NCBI GenBank assembly: GCA_944382905.1
Contig: CALWNU010000037.1
Span: forward strand, 24,392 to 88,391
From: an uncultured Clostridia bacterium
Lineage (GTDB): Bacteria > Bacillota > Clostridia > Oscillospirales > Ruminococcaceae
Direction of reading: 5' to 3'
DNA: 64,000 nucleotides
This document shows positions 3,934 to 9,236 of the stretch, in pieces; the first letter of the stretch is position 1; every line of letters starts with the position of its first letter. The notes below the pieces were generated by a model that did not search any database, was not told the origin of the DNA, and worked only from the letters and a program-made list of their open reading frames with translations. The position numbers were made by a program, and so were the translations under genes.

Positions 3934-5343
3934 ATGAATCAGTACCAGTTGGCCGTCATTGGCGCAGGGCCCGGCGGATATGTCGCCGCCATCCGCGCCG
4001 CCCAGCTTGGCATAAAGACGGCAATCATCGAAAAACAGGATGTGGGCGGCACCTGTCTCAATCGTGGATGCATTCCCACCAAAGCGCTGCTGCACGCTTC
4101 GGAAATCTACCATCAAGCGCGCAATGCCCTGGAATTGGGCCTGGACATCCAGGTCGGCGGATATGATATGGGCCGGCTCCATGACCGGAAAGAAAAGGTC
4201 GTCCTGCAGCTGAGAGGCGGCGTGGAACAACTGCTCAAAGCCAATCAGGTTGACCTGATCCGGGGGGAGGCGACCATTATGGCGCCGCATCAAATTGAGG
4301 TTGCCGGATCGGACTGCCCGTCCGTCACGGCGGATCATATTCTGATCGCCACCGGCTCGGTCCCCGCCCGGCCGCCGATCCCCGGTCTGGATCTGCCTGG
4401 CGTCGTCACCAGCGATGAAGTGCTGGAGGGCGACCCGGTGGATTACAAAAGCCTGATCATCATCGGCGGCGGGGTCATCGGCGTGGAATTCGCGACCTTT
4501 TACCAGCAGCTAGGGTGCGAGGTGACCATTTTAGAAGCCATGGACCGCCTGCTCCCAGCAATGGATCGGGAAATTTCCCAGAACCTCGGCATGATCCTCA
4601 AAAAGCGCGGCGTATCGGTCCACACCGGCGCGATGGTACAGCAAATCACCGCGGAGGGCGGTCAGCTTTGCTGCCATTTTACGGAAAAAGGCAAGGATGG
4701 CGCCGTCTCGGCCCAGGGCATTCTGGTGGCCATTGGGCGCCGGCCCAACACCCAGGGATTGTTTGGGCCCGGGGTATCGCCTGAAATGGACCGCGGACGT
4801 ATTGTTACCGACGAAACATTCGCCACCAGCCTGGACCAGGTTTGGGCCATTGGCGATGTGACCTCCCGCATCCAACTGGCGCATATGGCGTCAGCGCAGG
4901 GGATCGCCGTGGTGGAAGCCATCGCGGGGCACCCTGCTTCGGTGGATCTGTCGGTAGTGCCTTCCTGCATCTACACCGACCCGGAAATCGCCAGTGTCGG
5001 GATCACCGCAGACGAGGCAAAAGCACAGGGGATCGCGGTGAAAACCGGGAAATTTATTATGTCTGCCAATGGGAAGACCTTGATCGAAGGGAAAGACCGC
5101 GGGTTTATCAAGGTGGTATGCGCAGAAGACTCTGGCGTCATCCTCGGCGCGCAGCTCATGTGCGCCAGAGCGACGGACCTGGTCAGCGAATTCTCTTCCG
5201 CCATTGTCAACCGGCTGACGGCAAGCCAGATGACCCAGGTGATCCGCCCGCATCCGACTTTTACCGAAGCGGTGACCGAAGCGCTGGAAGATCTGGACGG
5301 GCACGCCATCCATGCAGCGCCCAGGCGCCGGCTTGCAAAATAA
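3934..5343 (+). CDS. lpdA: dihydrolipoyl dehydrogenase
   Basis: GAGPGGY FAD site, redox-active GGTCLNRGCIPTK disulfide motif, C-terminal dimerisation domain with HPT. Confidence 0.9.
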   Translation: MNQYQLAVIGAGPGGYVAAIRAAQLGIKTAIIEKQDVGGTCLNRGCIPTKALLHASEIYHQARNALELGLDIQVGGYDMGRLHDRKEKVVLQLRGGVEQLLKANQVDLIRGEATIMAPHQIEVAGSDCPSVTADHILIATGSVPARPPIPGLDLPGVVTSDEVLEGDPVDYKSLIIIGGGVIGVEFATFYQQLGCEVTILEAMDRLLPAMDREISQNLGMILKKRGVSVHTGAMVQQITAEGGQLCCHFTEKGKDGAVSAQGILVAIGRRPNTQGLFGPGVSPEMDRGRIVTDETFATSLDQVWAIGDVTSRIQLAHMASAQGIAVVEAIAGHPASVDLSVVPSCIYTDPEIASVGITADEAKAQGIAVKTGKFIMSANGKTLIEGKDRGFIKVVCAEDSGVILGAQLMCARATDLVSEFSSAIVNRLTASQMTQVIRPHPTFTEAVTEALEDLDGHAIHAAPRRRLAK

Positions 5344-5362
5344 CCCTTCCCCCAAAACAAAC

Positions 5363-5397
5363 AAGAGGAGGACGGCAATCTGCCGGCCTCCTCTTTT
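5363..5397. terminator. bidirectional terminator between convergent lpd and the DUF975 gene
   Basis: AAGAGGAGG-N15-CCTCCTCTT with T/A tracts on both sides. Confidence 0.7.
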
Positions 5398-5429
5398 CGG
5401 TTATGCCGCCTTTTCCAACGGCCGATTTT

Positions 5430-6365
5430 TTACTGATCGTCCGACATGGAATCACCGGATTTTTTCTCTTGCTCGATCTGCTGCTCAAACCAAGATGCGG
5501 TTCCGTCCGCCGGCTGAGCCGGTTGAGGCGGCTGAGGAGCGGAAGGCTGCTGACCCGTGAACCCCGGTTGCTGGCCGGAATATCCATATCCATTCGTCTG
5601 GGCATAGGGCGGGGCGTTCCAGCGGCGGGGTTCTCCCGTATAGCCATGGAGTCCTCCCAGCTCATTGGCGTCTGCCCTGCCGGCAGAAATGAGTTGATAT
5701 TTTAAAATTTCATACAGTTCCGCATAGGTCGCTTGCTCATACGGCAAAACAAACAGCACACCGATGCCGCAGGCCATTAAACCCAATAAATTCCATCCCA
5801 GAAACGACAGGTCCAAAACAAAAATAGCGCCCTTTTCCCCCTGGGTCATTTCCTTCGTCATAGCAAATGCACGGGTGGACTGGATGTTTGGATTCTCCGC
5901 CAGAATATAAGGAATCATCCGATATTCATAGGATTTTACAATACCTGGAATCAAAAACAGCAAGCTCCACAAAGCCGTATACAGATCTCGCAAAAACATG
6001 ATTTTTACCACGTTGAGATAGGTCCCGTTCCGGAACAGGGAAAAAAGCTGGTCGAACGCGCCCCGGTTCTGCCGGTTCGCGATGAAAAATCTGCATTGTC
6101 CGACCTGAATCGGATTGGTGACAAAAATGCCGAACAAAATGCCCAGCAACGCCAAAAAGGAAATCGTCAAAATCACGAAAGGGGCGATGCGCCAGGAGAA
6201 AACATAGTCCGTCTCATGGCTGAACCGAAAGACAAACGTATTGCTGCTTCCGCTTTGGGAAATGCCGGTCAGGATTGACACAATCAGACAGGCCAATAAG
6301 GCTTTCCAATAGCTAAAGCCAAGCACGTATTTTGCGTTGCCTTTGATCTGTTCTCTTGTCCACAT
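5430..6365 (-). CDS. DUF975 family membrane protein with Pro/Gln-rich C-terminal tail
   Basis: MWTREQIKGNAKYVL.. is a DUF975-type N-terminus; multiple TM segments. ATG 6365 is preceded by GGAGGG. Confidence 0.7.
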   Translation of the reverse strand: MWTREQIKGNAKYVLGFSYWKALLACLIVSILTGISQSGSSNTFVFRFSHETDYVFSWRIAPFVILTISFLALLGILFGIFVTNPIQVGQCRFFIANRQNRGAFDQLFSLFRNGTYLNVVKIMFLRDLYTALWSLLFLIPGIVKSYEYRMIPYILAENPNIQSTRAFAMTKEMTQGEKGAIFVLDLSFLGWNLLGLMACGIGVLFVLPYEQATYAELYEILKYQLISAGRADANELGGLHGYTGEPRRWNAPPYAQTNGYGYSGQQPGFTGQQPSAPQPPQPAQPADGTASWFEQQIEQEKKSGDSMSDDQ

Positions 6366-6479
6366 AGGAATCCCTCCATTCGGTATCATTGTATCATATT
6401 CCGATAAAATCGGCAAACCTATCTTTTTGCATGCAGCTGCTTTTTTCGGGGAATCCGCGCCGGCTGCCGCAAAAAAAAC

Positions 6480-6508
6480 TTTACAAATCCTTGGAACCGT
6501 GCTACACT
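6480..6508 (+). promoter_or_regulatory. sigma-A-like promoter of the aroF-pheA leader
   Basis: TTTACA, 17-nt spacer, TACACT. Confidence 0.6.
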
Positions 6509-6538
6509 GGTACCCAGTTCAATCGTTGCGAGGTTCAA

Positions 6539-6631
6539 ATGATGAATCGGATCTATTCTAAATTCTTTACCTTCTTCTTTAGCTGGGCATTTTTCTTTTG
6601 CACCGGCTTAGTTGAATATGGTAAAATATGA
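6539..6631 (+). CDS. Phe-rich leader peptide (pheL-like), 30 aa
   Basis: MMNRIYSKFFTFFFSWAFFFCTGLVEYGKI has 8 Phe and 1 Trp within 12 consecutive codons (6563-6598). GAGG lies 5 nt upstream. The peptide sits between a promoter and a terminator upstream of Phe-biosynthesis genes. Confidence 0.65.
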   Translation: MMNRIYSKFFTFFFSWAFFFCTGLVEYGKI

Positions 6632-6661
6632 TAGGTCACCGCTTCCAGCTTCATATTGTCA

Positions 6662-6695
6662 GGGACTTATGATATTTTTCATAAGTCCCTTTTTT
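6662..6695 (+). terminator. attenuator terminator upstream of aroF
   Basis: Perfect 11-bp stem GGGACTTATGA / TCATAAGTCCC, 6-nt loop, then TTTTTT. Confidence 0.8.
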
Positions 6696-6744
6696 GTTGC
6701 CGGTTTTGCAAAAACGATTGGCCCAGAGAAAGGAAGATGAAAAA

Positions 6745-7767
6745 ATGGTAGTCGTACTCAGACCCAATACCCCCAAGGACAAGACCCAGCAGCTCATGGA
6801 AGAAATCAAGCACTCCTACCCCGGCGTTTCCTGTCACTGCACCGAAGGCACCCAGGTGACGATCATCGGTTTGGTAGGCGACACCTCCCACGTGGACATG
6901 GATTCCATCCTGGCGCACCAGGATATTGTGGAGCGGGTGACCCGGGTGCAGGAACCGTATAAAATGGTCAACCGCAAATTCCATCCGCAGAACACGGTCA
7001 TCACGCTGGAAAACGGGCTGCAGATCGGCGGGAAGCAAATCGTTGTCATGGCGGGCCCGTGCTCGGTGGAATCGGAAGAACAGATCATCGAGGTCGCCAC
7101 AAAAGCCAAAGCGTCCGGCGCCCACATCCTCCGCGGCGGCGCCTTCAAGCCCCGCACTTCTCCCTATGCGTTCCAGGGCCTGCGCGCAGAGGGAGTGGAA
7201 CTTCTGCTCAAAGCCAAAGAGGCCACCGGCCTGCCCATTGTGTCCGAAGTCATGAGCGCCGCCCAAATTCCGCTTTTTGAACAGGTGGATATTATCCAGG
7301 TCGGCGCCAGAAACATGCAGAATTTTGAGCTGCTCAAGGAGCTGGGCCGCCTGGATAAGCCTATCCTGCTCAAACGCGGCCTTTCCAGCACCATCGAAGA
7401 ATGGCTGATGAGCGCAGAGTACATCATGGCGGGCGGCAACGAAAAGGTCATCCTCTGCGAGCGGGGGATCCGCACCTACGAAACCTTTACCCGCAATACG
7501 CTGGATATCTCCGCCGTGCCGATTTTAAAACATCTGACCCACCTGCCGGTGATTGTCGACCCCAGCCACGGGACCGGTATCACCTGGCTGGTGGAACCCA
7601 TGGCCAAGGCCGCCATTGTCGCCGGAGCCGACGGCTTGATGGTGGAAGTCCATAACAATCCGGAAAAAGCCCTGTCCGACGGCGCCCAGTCGCTGCGGCC
7701 GGAAACCTTCGATGGGATCATGACCAGCCTGCGCCGCTACGCCCAGGTCGAAGGCCGGTCCCTGTAA
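6745..7767 (+). CDS. aroF: 3-deoxy-7-phosphoheptulonate (DAHP) synthase, type I-beta with N-terminal regulatory domain
   Basis: ..VVMAGPCSVESEEQ..GAHILRGGAFKPRTSPY.FQG..KRG....EW..AAEYI..GN..VILCERGIRT..DPSH is the KDO8P/DAHP synthase I-beta pattern. RBS GAAAGGAAG. Confidence 0.9.
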   Translation: MVVVLRPNTPKDKTQQLMEEIKHSYPGVSCHCTEGTQVTIIGLVGDTSHVDMDSILAHQDIVERVTRVQEPYKMVNRKFHPQNTVITLENGLQIGGKQIVVMAGPCSVESEEQIIEVATKAKASGAHILRGGAFKPRTSPYAFQGLRAEGVELLLKAKEATGLPIVSEVMSAAQIPLFEQVDIIQVGARNMQNFELLKELGRLDKPILLKRGLSSTIEEWLMSAEYIMAGGNEKVILCERGIRTYETFTRNTLDISAVPILKHLTHLPVIVDPSHGTGITWLVEPMAKAAIVAGADGLMVEVHNNPEKALSDGAQSLRPETFDGIMTSLRRYAQVEGRSL

Positions 7768-7782
7768 AAAGGGGGAACCACT

Positions 7783-8916
7783 ATGAAAAATGAGGCATTG
7801 GAGCAAATCCGCCTGCAAATCAATCAAACCGACAGCCAGATCACCCGCCTGTTCGCCCAGCGGATGGAACTGGTCGCCCAGGTGGCCAAAATCAAGCAGG
7901 ACGCCGGCCTGCCGGTATACGATCCCGCCCGGGAGGCCCAGGTTCTGGACCGGGTCGGCCAAGCGGCTGGACCGGAAAAGGCAGCCTATTTGCGCCAGGT
8001 CTATCAAAGCCTGATGGACGCCAGCAAAGATTATGAACAGGTGCTCCTGCAAACAGAAAACGAAATACCGGGCGAAATGTCTTCCCCGGACCAGCTGCCT
8101 TGCCGTCCCAAGGTCGCCTGTCAGGGCGTTGCCGGCGCGTTTTCCGGCGAAGCGGCCCGCCGGATGTTCCCGCAGGGCGAATTGGTTTTCGTCCCAAGCT
8201 GGGAGGACGCCTTCGAAGCGGTCGTTCAAAACCAATGCGATTTCGCGGTGCTTCCGGTAGAAAACTCCCTTGCCGGTTCGGTCGGGCAGGTGTACGATTT
8301 GCTGCTGCAATACCGCCTGGTAATCGGCCTGGCCTGCCGCTTGCCGGTGGAGCAGAATCTGCTGGCCCTGCCAAACGCCACGCTGGACGACATCACCGAG
8401 ATCTATTCCCATCCCCAGGGTCTGGCCCAATGCAAAAAGTTCTGCGCCGGCTTACCACTGGCCAGAACCATCCCCATGGAAAACACCGCCGCCGCGGCCA
8501 AGATGGTGGCAGCGCTAGGCGATATCCACAAGGCGGCCATCGCCTCTTCCTACTGCGCTGGGATCTATGGCCTGCAGGTGCTGGCTCCATCGATCCAGAC
8601 CGCAGAGCACAACACCACCCGGTTCGTCGCCGTATCCCGGCACAACTACCGCAGCGATCACGCCAATAAAATCAGTCTGGCGTTTTCCCTGCCGCACCGT
8701 CCGGGCGCGTTAAACCGGCTGCTGTCCCGCTTTGCCGCGCTGGATCTGAATTTAACCAAAATCGAATCCCGCCCCGCTAGTGGAAAGGATTTTGAGTATG
8801 ACTTTTATTTGGATTTCGCGGGAAATACTGCATCACGGGAAATCCAGTTTTTGATTCACTCCTTGTCCGAACAGCTTCCCGCCTTTACCTTTCTCGGCAA
8901 TTACCAGGAATTGTAA
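7783..8916 (+). CDS. pheA: bifunctional chorismate mutase / prephenate dehydratase
   Basis: N-terminal CM_2 helix (LEQIRLQINQTDSQITRLFAQRMELV), central PDT domain (VACQGVAGAFS..ENSLAGSV), C-terminal ACT domain (TRF.V..ESRP). Confidence 0.9.
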   Translation: MKNEALEQIRLQINQTDSQITRLFAQRMELVAQVAKIKQDAGLPVYDPAREAQVLDRVGQAAGPEKAAYLRQVYQSLMDASKDYEQVLLQTENEIPGEMSSPDQLPCRPKVACQGVAGAFSGEAARRMFPQGELVFVPSWEDAFEAVVQNQCDFAVLPVENSLAGSVGQVYDLLLQYRLVIGLACRLPVEQNLLALPNATLDDITEIYSHPQGLAQCKKFCAGLPLARTIPMENTAAAAKMVAALGDIHKAAIASSYCAGIYGLQVLAPSIQTAEHNTTRFVAVSRHNYRSDHANKISLAFSLPHRPGALNRLLSRFAALDLNLTKIESRPASGKDFEYDFYLDFAGNTASREIQFLIHSLSEQLPAFTFLGNYQEL

Positions 8917-9002
8917 CCGGCTCCGCAGATCTGTCACCTCCCTCCCTGTTTTGGCATAGTTTAGTACCGCGGAAGAGAATCCGCAAGATTGGGAGGATTG
9001 AA

Positions 9003-9236
9003 ATGACAAATTGTAATCGATGCAGAAATAATTCGGCCAACGGAAGAAGCTGTGGAAACGGCGGCTGCAACGGCTCTTTCACCGAGTACATCCCGGTCAC
9101 GGTCAACTACGAGGTAATCCTCGGGAATGGTTTCGTAACCGGAAACGGTGTCAGCCCTATCAGCAACGGGGATTGTTTTTACAACCCGGTGTCGGAATCC
9201 AGCCGGTATACCCCCGCTTCCGGCGATTGCCTCTGA
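9003..9236 (+). CDS. small Cys/Asn/Gly-rich hypothetical protein (77 aa)
   Basis: GGGAGG RBS 6 nt upstream of ATG; CxxC-x9-CxxxxC near the N-terminus and two GDC motifs. A GC-rich hairpin (9243-9262) and a bidirectional terminator follow. No family recognised. Confidence 0.5.
   Translation: MTNCNRCRNNSANGRSCGNGGCNGSFTEYIPVTVNYEVILGNGFVTGNGVSPISNGDCFYNPVSESSRYTPASGDCL

Follow-up and report, generated by a model that had tools for sequence, protein, structure and literature searches.

Organization of the aroF-pheA leader

The stretch of DNA considered here (the window) comprises 64,000 nucleotides (nt) from an uncultured Clostridia bacterium of the family Ruminococcaceae (assembly GCA_944382905.1, contig CALWNU010000037.1, positions 24,392 to 88,391 of the forward strand), and it carries the genes aroF and pheA preceded by a putative leader-peptide attenuator, the element with which this analysis is concerned. 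All coordinates are those of the window, except where they follow the number of a sampled relative aroF locus (Lnnn). An earlier note, made from the letters of the sequence, had proposed that a Phe-rich leader peptide with a terminator and an antiterminator governs transcription of these two genes in the manner of pheL-pheA. Direct reading of the window sequence recovered all the features that it had listed, with the promoter, the Shine-Dalgarno (SD) motif, an ATG at 6539, the run of eight Phe codons and one Trp codon, the terminator and the 50-nt gap to aroF lying where the note had placed them. The locus is organized as follows.

6480-6508, plus strand: sigma-70-type promoter matched by a promoter scan, with -35 TTTACA (6480-6485), a 17-nt spacer and -10 TACACT (6503-6508)
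6530-6533, plus strand: SD motif GAGG of the leader open reading frame (ORF), read from the sequence and retained in the alignment of relatives
6542-6631, plus strand: leader peptide ORF, MNRIYSKFFTFFFSWAFFFCTGLVEYGKI followed by TGA, 29 codons, with the SD motif 8 nt upstream of ATG 6542
6550-6557, plus strand: segment 1, GATCTATT, putative anti-antiterminator that supplies the 5' side of the outer 1:2 helix, pairing with 6630-6637 in the minimum free energy (MFE) fold; helix 80% paired in relatives
6563-6598, plus strand: regulatory codon run F F T F F F S W A F F F, with eight Phe and one Trp in 12 codons
6572-6616, plus strand: inner hairpin of the 1:2 structure, -14.7 kcal/mol, with the core AGCUGGGCA / UGC.CCGGCU at 6581-6608
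6623-6640, plus strand: segment 2, the antiterminator 5' strand AAAATATGATAGGTCACC, including the stop codon TGA (6629-6631)
6661-6678, plus strand: segment 3, terminator 5' arm and loop, with either segment 2 (antiterminator) or segment 4 as partner
6679-6690, plus strand: segment 4, the terminator 3' strand, pairing with segment 3
6661-6695, plus strand: intrinsic terminator with a 12-bp stem, a 6-nt loop and T6, -18.5 kcal/mol
6745-7767, plus strand: aroF, first regulated gene, DAHP synthase with an N-terminal ferredoxin-like regulatory domain (Pfam PF00793 and PF18152)
7783-8916, plus strand: pheA, second regulated gene, bifunctional chorismate mutase / prephenate dehydratase with an ACT domain (Pfam CM_2, PDT and ACT)
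5430-6416, minus strand: gene of a DUF975 protein, the upstream neighbour, divergent from aroF

The promoter has an extended -10 element (TGcTACACT, 6500-6508, with the TG at 6500-6501), and transcription would start near 6515-6516. Two in-frame ATG codons stand in tandem at 6539 and 6542. The earlier note had read a 30-codon leader from the first of them, and that ORF is present (MMNRIYSKFFTFFFSWAFFFCTGLVEYGKI, 30 amino acids (aa), ending at the TGA of 6629-6631), but the ATG kept by relatives in a 10-sequence alignment is the one at 6542, that at 6539 being an in-frame extra of this genome only; judged from this comparison, the leader likely starts at 6542 and counts 29 codons. The short ORF (sORF) is nested in frame within a mechanically delimited ORF (6389-6631) of 80 aa. 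We rejected the latter as a real gene, since its in-frame extension upstream of the leader ATG remains open for anything between 3 and 60 codons across relatives and is not conserved. The expectation that gene callers would miss the leader does not always hold, the leader sORF having been called in the relatives L162 (1299-1388) and L167 (630-719).

The terminator stem is formed by GGGACTTATGA (6662-6672) and TCATAAGTCCC (6679-6689), with an additional A-U pair (6661/6690) and the T6 tract at 6690-6695. With 12 pairs it is the strongest terminator-like site that a terminator scan found between 5000 and 10000, and the aroF ATG (6745) lies 50 nt past its T-run. Its assignment to the upstream gene was rejected: the terminator cannot serve the DUF975 gene because that gene is on the minus strand.

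Alternative secondary structures of the leader RNA

The leader RNA (6510-6700) has an MFE of -54 kcal/mol, with a z score of -4.26 against 200 dinucleotide shuffles. The antiterminator pairing proposed earlier, of 6623-6637 with 6664-6678, proved to be exactly as claimed, with 13 Watson-Crick pairs, one G-U pair and one mismatch (G.G), and RNAfold extends it by two C-G pairs (6639-6640 with 6662-6663) to give a hairpin of -13.9 kcal/mol; for the duplex that these two window strands form, the antiterminator strand and the terminator 5' arm, the z score is -2.96. The folding of 6510-6700 that the earlier note had recommended as a check thus returned the mutually exclusive structures that it anticipated, the terminator at -18.5 and the antiterminator at -13.9 kcal/mol, and the full-length fold amounts to -54.0 kcal/mol in the terminated form versus -40.8 kcal/mol when the antiterminator is forced.

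The earlier model was right about these two alternative structures but incomplete, for it had missed segment 1. This segment closes a 1:2 hairpin (6550-6637) of -25.8 kcal/mol, whose 3' strand is segment 2, the same stretch as the antiterminator strand; as the two structures share this strand, the element is, as modelled, of the full four-segment trp/phe-type design, which goes beyond two alternative structures. Segment 1 (GATCTATTC, 6550-6558) and segment 3 (GACTTATGA, 6664-6672, elsewhere quoted as GACTTATG) are near-repeats, as is to be expected because both pair with segment 2 (TATGATAGGTC). Within the 1:2 hairpin, three Phe codons sit in the loop of the inner hairpin core (6581-6608), and it is tempting to speculate that the inner hairpin (6572-6616) may act as a pause hairpin synchronising ribosome and polymerase, or as the core of an anti-antiterminator.

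Folds computed with a ribosome placed on the RNA discriminate between the two outcomes. With a simulated ribosome on any of the Phe codons (15 nt masked beyond the A site), the nascent RNA to 6679 folds as the antiterminator, whereas moving the simulated ribosome to the stop codon leaves the terminator as the one structure possible.

Conservation and covariation in close relatives

A protein search followed by look-ups of the encoding contigs yielded 10 distinct leaders from relatives whose AroF is 81-93% identical to that of the window, and these were aligned. The closest genome match is L001, an Oscillospiraceae metagenome-assembled genome (AroF 81% identical), which has the same architecture with the leader MKYGSTYQNFTYFFSWGFFFTSGLTKYGKV. 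A metagenome scan with AroF found no close relative, the best match having 68% identity, and nucleotide similarity fades fast: among the first 82 leaders, nhmmer aligned the window leader to L001 alone. The relatives share the gene order, with DUF975 on the minus strand followed by aroF and then pheA.

The alignment of 10 sequences displays conserved blocks at the promoter, the SD motif, ATG 6542, the Phe/Trp run, the stop-codon block TATGATAGGTCAC and the terminator, while the 20-nt spacer between segment 2 and the terminator varies freely. In each of the 10 relatives the promoter, TTTACA-17-TGnTAnAAT, keeps a constant distance of 31-34 nt to the leader ATG. Phe positions remain Phe while TTT and TTC are swapped, and the TGG codon for Trp is invariant. 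The tail of the sORF is constrained at all three codon positions, and beyond the stop codon the non-coding ATAGGTCAC is shared (nearly) unchanged by all 10 relatives, with a single T at 6638; conservation at every codon position and past the stop therefore argues for a pairing constraint at the RNA level. The check by alignment of orthologues proposed in the earlier note hence came out in its favour as regards the sORF and the Phe run, and compensatory changes were found in the terminator and the 1:2 hairpin, though not in the antiterminator. In the terminator 96.7% of cells are paired, two pairs having changed on both sides (A-U to G-C in one), versus 37-53% for slid partners. For the 1:2 hairpin these figures are 88% and five double-change pairs, with a covariation score reached by 0 of 500 shuffles, and its inner hairpin is paired in 95% of cells with three pairs changed on both sides. 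Antiterminator cells are paired at 90% (slid partners 37-54%), with no double-change pair.

Two of the relatives, L167 (630-719) and L173 (36-125), have an identical leader peptide and leader sequence (MSKTYSKNFTFFFSWAFFFSTGLVEYGKI) in front of different aroF alleles, the AroF of L167 being 83% and that of L173 92% identical to the window AroF, and the operons are aroF-tyrA-aroB and aroF-pheA, respectively. Compared at the sequence level, this suggests that one lineage has two paralogous aroF operons with a Phe-type leader in common, or else that recombination took place.

Aromatic-rich leader ORFs upstream of aroF in other Clostridia

The 350 nt upstream of aroF were sampled at 81 loci from 80 species-representative genomes, to which 80 metagenome loci were later added (about 160 in total). 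At 36 of the first 81 loci the best sORF had at least 7 Phe, Tyr or Trp codons in 12; the reverse strand gave such an sORF at 2 of 81 loci, and shuffled sequences did so in 1 of 405 cases. When a leader is counted wherever an sORF with SD motif and start codon has at least 6 such codons in 12, the roughly 160 loci contain 82 distinct leaders, most with a recognisable SD motif and nearly all starting with ATG, so that unannotated relatives of the window leader precede aroF at about half of the sampled Clostridia loci. By their database labels, they occur in Oscillospiraceae, Ruminococcaceae, Lachnospiraceae, Clostridium, Christensenellaceae and Clostridioides difficile, and the culturable Hominicoprocola fusiformis (L029) has one as well. 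Nearly all are followed, 15-80 nt past the stop codon and before aroF, by a strong hairpin with a U-tract.

Complementarity between the two halves of these leaders was assessed by a swap control, in which the terminator 5' arm and loop of each locus were paired with its own upstream 60 nt and with the upstream 60 nt of other loci. Own-locus pairing was better (mean dE -3.9 kcal/mol, Wilcoxon p = 7.6e-10), 26 of 69 loci fell in the top decile, and the window antiterminator ranked within the top 1% when upstream segments from 68 other loci served for comparison. A covariance model of the window subfamily matched 15 distant leaders, all of them directly upstream of aroF and on the coding strand, with weak scores (E from 3e-4 to 0.8). 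Hairpins like that at window 6581-6608 are also found in the leaders of L005, L033 and L046, and distant leaders, those of C. difficile and L019 among them, share the corresponding peptide motif S-[WL]-[AGS]-[FY][FY][FY]-x-[ST]-[AGT]-G. The C. difficile locus L052 carries an aromatic-rich sORF (9 of 12 codons) and, 44-68 nt before aroF, a terminator; the leader peptide is deposited at NCBI as a 51-aa (or 43-aa) 'hypothetical protein' (KPI52306.1, WP_131066694.1), and the 29-aa Oscillospiraceae leader peptides are present in public collections under no name at all.

Genes downstream of aroF cluster into tyrA, aroB, aroA, aroC and pheA, and the codon composition of the leaders follows this content. 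The Tyr share, Y/(F+Y), is higher with co-transcribed tyrA (median 0.50, n=44) than with aroB or pheA directly after aroF (median 0.29, n=19; Mann-Whitney p = 7e-6, a statistic that ignores phylogeny), and the Phe-dominated leader of the window aroF-pheA is consistent with this trend. Among 20 loci devoid of an aromatic-rich sORF, an Rfam scan detected a T-box (RF00230) directly upstream of aroF in L020 (2686-2941) and L042 (2664-2924); on these sequence matches, T-box and leader peptide are seen to alternate at the same position before aroF. Exchange of sensors at one site is a known pattern. A T-box was also seen in L007, farther downstream (5259-5503) and before another gene.

Further observations concern the margins of the two window genes. 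A 4-codon mini-ORF, ATG AAA AAA TGG TAG (6738-6752), overlaps the aroF start (6745) in another frame; relatives likewise have an ATG within the aroF SD region (AGGATG), and the mini-ORF is probably just part of the ribosome-binding region. Directly after pheA lies a 77-aa ORF on the plus strand (9003-9236), rich in Cys, Gly and Asn (MTNCNRCRNNSANGRSCGNGGCNGS...) and devoid of a Pfam match, with promoter-like sites nearby at 8951-8980 and 9003-9032.

Proposed mechanism and rival explanations

Four features expected of a ribosome-mediated attenuator are found in the window: an sORF with its own SD motif and start codon, downstream of a promoter and conserved in 10 relatives; a cluster of end-product codons, enriched far beyond the controls on shuffles and on the reverse strand; an intrinsic terminator that separates the leader ORF from aroF; and, in silico, a mutually exclusive antiterminator. 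The model of stop-codon masking and stalling at Phe codons put forward in the earlier note draws support from the placed-ribosome folds, the conserved blocks, the covariation and the recurrence of such leaders in the family and, indirectly, from a premature termination event mapped in the 5' untranslated region of C. difficile aroF (PMC8237595). We therefore regard the element, with high confidence, as a ribosome-mediated (leader-peptide) transcription attenuator of aroF-pheA that senses charged tRNA-Phe, and possibly tRNA-Trp as well.

From the parts of the leader, their conservation, the alternative pairings and their energies as set out above, we infer that the sORF is translated, that ribosomes stall in it, that transcription and translation are coupled and that the system responds to Phe. 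Transcription would start at about 6515 from the conserved promoter, and a ribosome would load at GAGG/ATG 6542 and translate the 29-codon leader. When Phe is plentiful, this ribosome would reach the TGA at 6629-6631 and cover segment 2 (6623-6640) or, alternatively, segment 2 would re-pair with segment 1 in the 1:2 hairpin after ribosome release; either route would leave segment 3 free for segment 4, the terminator (6661-6690 and U6) would form and the polymerase would stop at about 6695, releasing a leader RNA of about 180 nt. When charged tRNA-Phe is scarce, the ribosome would stall within 6563-6598, breaking the 1:2 hairpin and falling short of 6623, so that segment 2 could pair with 6662-6678 once this is transcribed; the terminator would then not form and transcription would read through into aroF and pheA.

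Several observations weigh against this interpretation. The antiterminator core (GATAGGTC with GACTTAT) never varies in the 10 relatives, and because of this invariance no column-wise compensatory change appears in the antiterminator; MAFFT also splits the terminator loop, and an A-U to G-C exchange involving that loop in L165, L166 and L170 was seen by eye only. The outer 1:2 helix is just 80% paired in the relatives. Family-wide, a dinucleotide-shuffle test of the antiterminator is weak (median z -0.56, with z below -2 at 10 of 38 loci), and codon content is not strictly tied to the operon, L167 having aroF-tyrA-aroB behind a Phe-type leader. When no ribosome is present, the two states differ little in energy and the outcome varies with the 5' end that is assumed; with the 5' end at 6510 the ribosome-free nascent RNA already favours the antiterminator, which makes the default state under no translation uncertain. 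Tight coupling of transcription and translation is reportedly weak in Bacillus subtilis. Finally, the attenuator assignment, which we nonetheless consider very probable, rests for this organism on in-silico evidence.

Other readings of the same region have to be considered. Were the sORF to encode a small hydrophobic (membrane) peptide that has a function and is followed by a terminator of its own, its Phe richness would reflect a transmembrane segment and not regulation. The peptide is hydrophobic, its sequence (M.KTYSKNFTFFFSWAFFF.TGL.EYGKI) is well conserved in the close relatives, gene callers pick it up in some cases and the C. difficile homologues have been deposited as hypothetical proteins; yet nothing but aromatic content and location before aroF persists across the wider family, where length and sequence vary freely. 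Moreover, the RNA-level constraint evident in the ORF tail and beyond the stop codon, the complementarity of the stop-codon region to the terminator arm and a Phe/Tyr composition that follows the content of the downstream operon all speak against this explanation, which we hold to be highly improbable.

It is also conceivable that the switch is worked by a riboswitch ligand, by uncharged tRNA through a divergent T-box or by a TRAP-like protein, the sORF being incidental. T-boxes at aroF in other Clostridia (L020, L042) and a premature termination event of C. difficile with no assigned mechanism lend this idea some appeal. An Rfam cmscan of 6000-7200 with E up to 10 returned chance matches only, with neither the Phe_leader (RF01859) nor a T-box (RF00230) among them; these were a SorX match on the minus strand inside the DUF975 gene (6122-6185) and matches of mir-3938 and RAGATH-8 on the terminator hairpin, all dismissed. 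At the gathering threshold, 20 leader-bearing loci matched no family and no T-box. A TRAP-regulated leader of the Bacillus trp kind would have 9-11 (G/U)AG triplets at 2-3 nt spacing, and was discarded given only 5 isolated triplets in 6510-6744 (longest chain 1). Aromatic codons standing in frame behind a conserved SD motif and ATG, varying synonymously at the Phe positions and enriched in one strand and frame specifically, likewise argue against an incidental sORF, and we attach very little weight to a switch of this type. Equally improbable would be a mechanism in which stalling acts mainly on aroF translation or mRNA stability, or one in which the hairpin terminates constitutively and in part, or serves as a stabiliser. 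Some attenuators do sequester the ribosome-binding site instead of terminating transcription (PMC9413887), and MFE folds cannot show kinetics. Against it stand a canonical intrinsic terminator with U6 located 50 nt upstream of the aroF start, a comparable hairpin and U-tract after nearly all leaders of the family and the premature 3' ends observed in the C. difficile aroF leader (PMC8237595), which leave this mechanism a very slim chance. Transcription attenuation by a translating ribosome is thus the explanation that we retain.

Significance

The full-text literature that we searched contained no description of a leader-peptide attenuator of aroF in Clostridia, and Rfam 15 has no family for the leader element. 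While this kind of mechanism is already known, its breadth across Clostridia aroF is apparently undescribed. We see about even chances that the window element is one of a large undescribed family of aromatic leader-peptide attenuators controlling aroF operons across the class Clostridia, a family that may span Oscillospiraceae, Ruminococcaceae, Lachnospiraceae, Clostridiaceae and Peptostreptococcaceae including C. difficile. If this is true, the codon mix of the leader would be tuned to the operon (rich in Tyr where tyrA is co-transcribed, in Phe where pheA or aroB is present), the leader would alternate in evolution with T-boxes at the same position, the orphan premature termination event at C. 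difficile aroF would be explained, and coupling of ribosome and RNA polymerase in these Gram-positive anaerobes would be good enough for classical attenuation. In abundant gut Clostridia, such an attenuator would offer a concrete mechanism by which entry into aromatic amino-acid synthesis is regulated. The approximately 80 distinct leaders constitute a data set on the mutual replacement of leaders and T-boxes, on codon composition in relation to the operon and on whether coupling operates in Firmicutes beyond Bacillus. Annotation pipelines should label such sORFs as leader peptides, and not as hypothetical proteins or as parts of spurious long ORFs.

Comparison with known attenuators

The leader-peptide attenuator of pheL-pheA is a textbook case in enterobacteria (PMC3082878). 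The window element resembles this system of E. coli and other gamma-proteobacteria (RF01859): a run of Phe codons occupies a short leader ORF, the 1:2, 2:3 and 3:4 pairings are alternatives governed by the same regulatory logic, and an intrinsic terminator precedes a gene for chorismate mutase / prephenate dehydratase. Nevertheless, Rfam reveals no homology in sequence or structure (E up to 10), the first regulated gene is here aroF, for DAHP synthase, with pheA in second place, the leader is longer (29 aa), with an invariant Trp codon and with Phe codons in a conserved hairpin loop, and the host is a Gram-positive anaerobe. Judged by these sequence comparisons, the window element is analogous to pheL, not homologous.

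Closer in the gene controlled is aroR-aroF of Corynebacterium glutamicum, reported as a Phe-Tyr-Phe leader with increased read-through on Phe limitation (PMC4046766; PMC11802643, citing Neshat 2014). Both systems have an aromatic-codon leader peptide upstream of an aroF operon; compared by description, the system of this actinobacterium differs in having three regulatory codons, whereas the Clostridial leaders have 6-10 aromatic ones. Within the Bacillota in the broad sense, Brewer et al. 2021 (PMC8632094) propose the Acholeplasma aroF motif uORFC-13-1 as a Phe-sensing attenuator based on an upstream ORF. It shares with the window leader its location upstream of aroF, the -35 and -10 boxes, a ribosome-binding site, a start codon, a U-run encoding Phe and an adjoining intrinsic terminator, but as described there it is confined to Acholeplasma and environmental sequences (24 representatives) and has 'at least one' Phe codon, compared with the long Phe/Tyr/Trp run of the Clostridial leaders.

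With regard to Clostridia, Fuchs et al. 2021 (PMC8237595) list the 5' untranslated region of aroF among the premature termination events of C. difficile that have no known riboregulator. This event concerns the same gene in the same class, and the paper assigns it no mechanism; a leader of the L052 type with its terminator would explain it.

The earlier note had called a leader-peptide attenuator unusual for Firmicutes. The T-boxes upstream of aroF in L020 and L042 agree with that view, which is too strong in that leaders for His and Leu operons and for Acholeplasma aroF have already been described or predicted. The leader peptides documented or predicted in Firmicutes for His (PMC2965389; PMC9413887, including C. 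difficile) and for Leu (PMC5314783, PMC5794164) are of other amino-acid specificity and unrelated in sequence to the leader described here. What they have in common with it is that leader peptides replace T-boxes (RF00230) before amino-acid biosynthesis operons.

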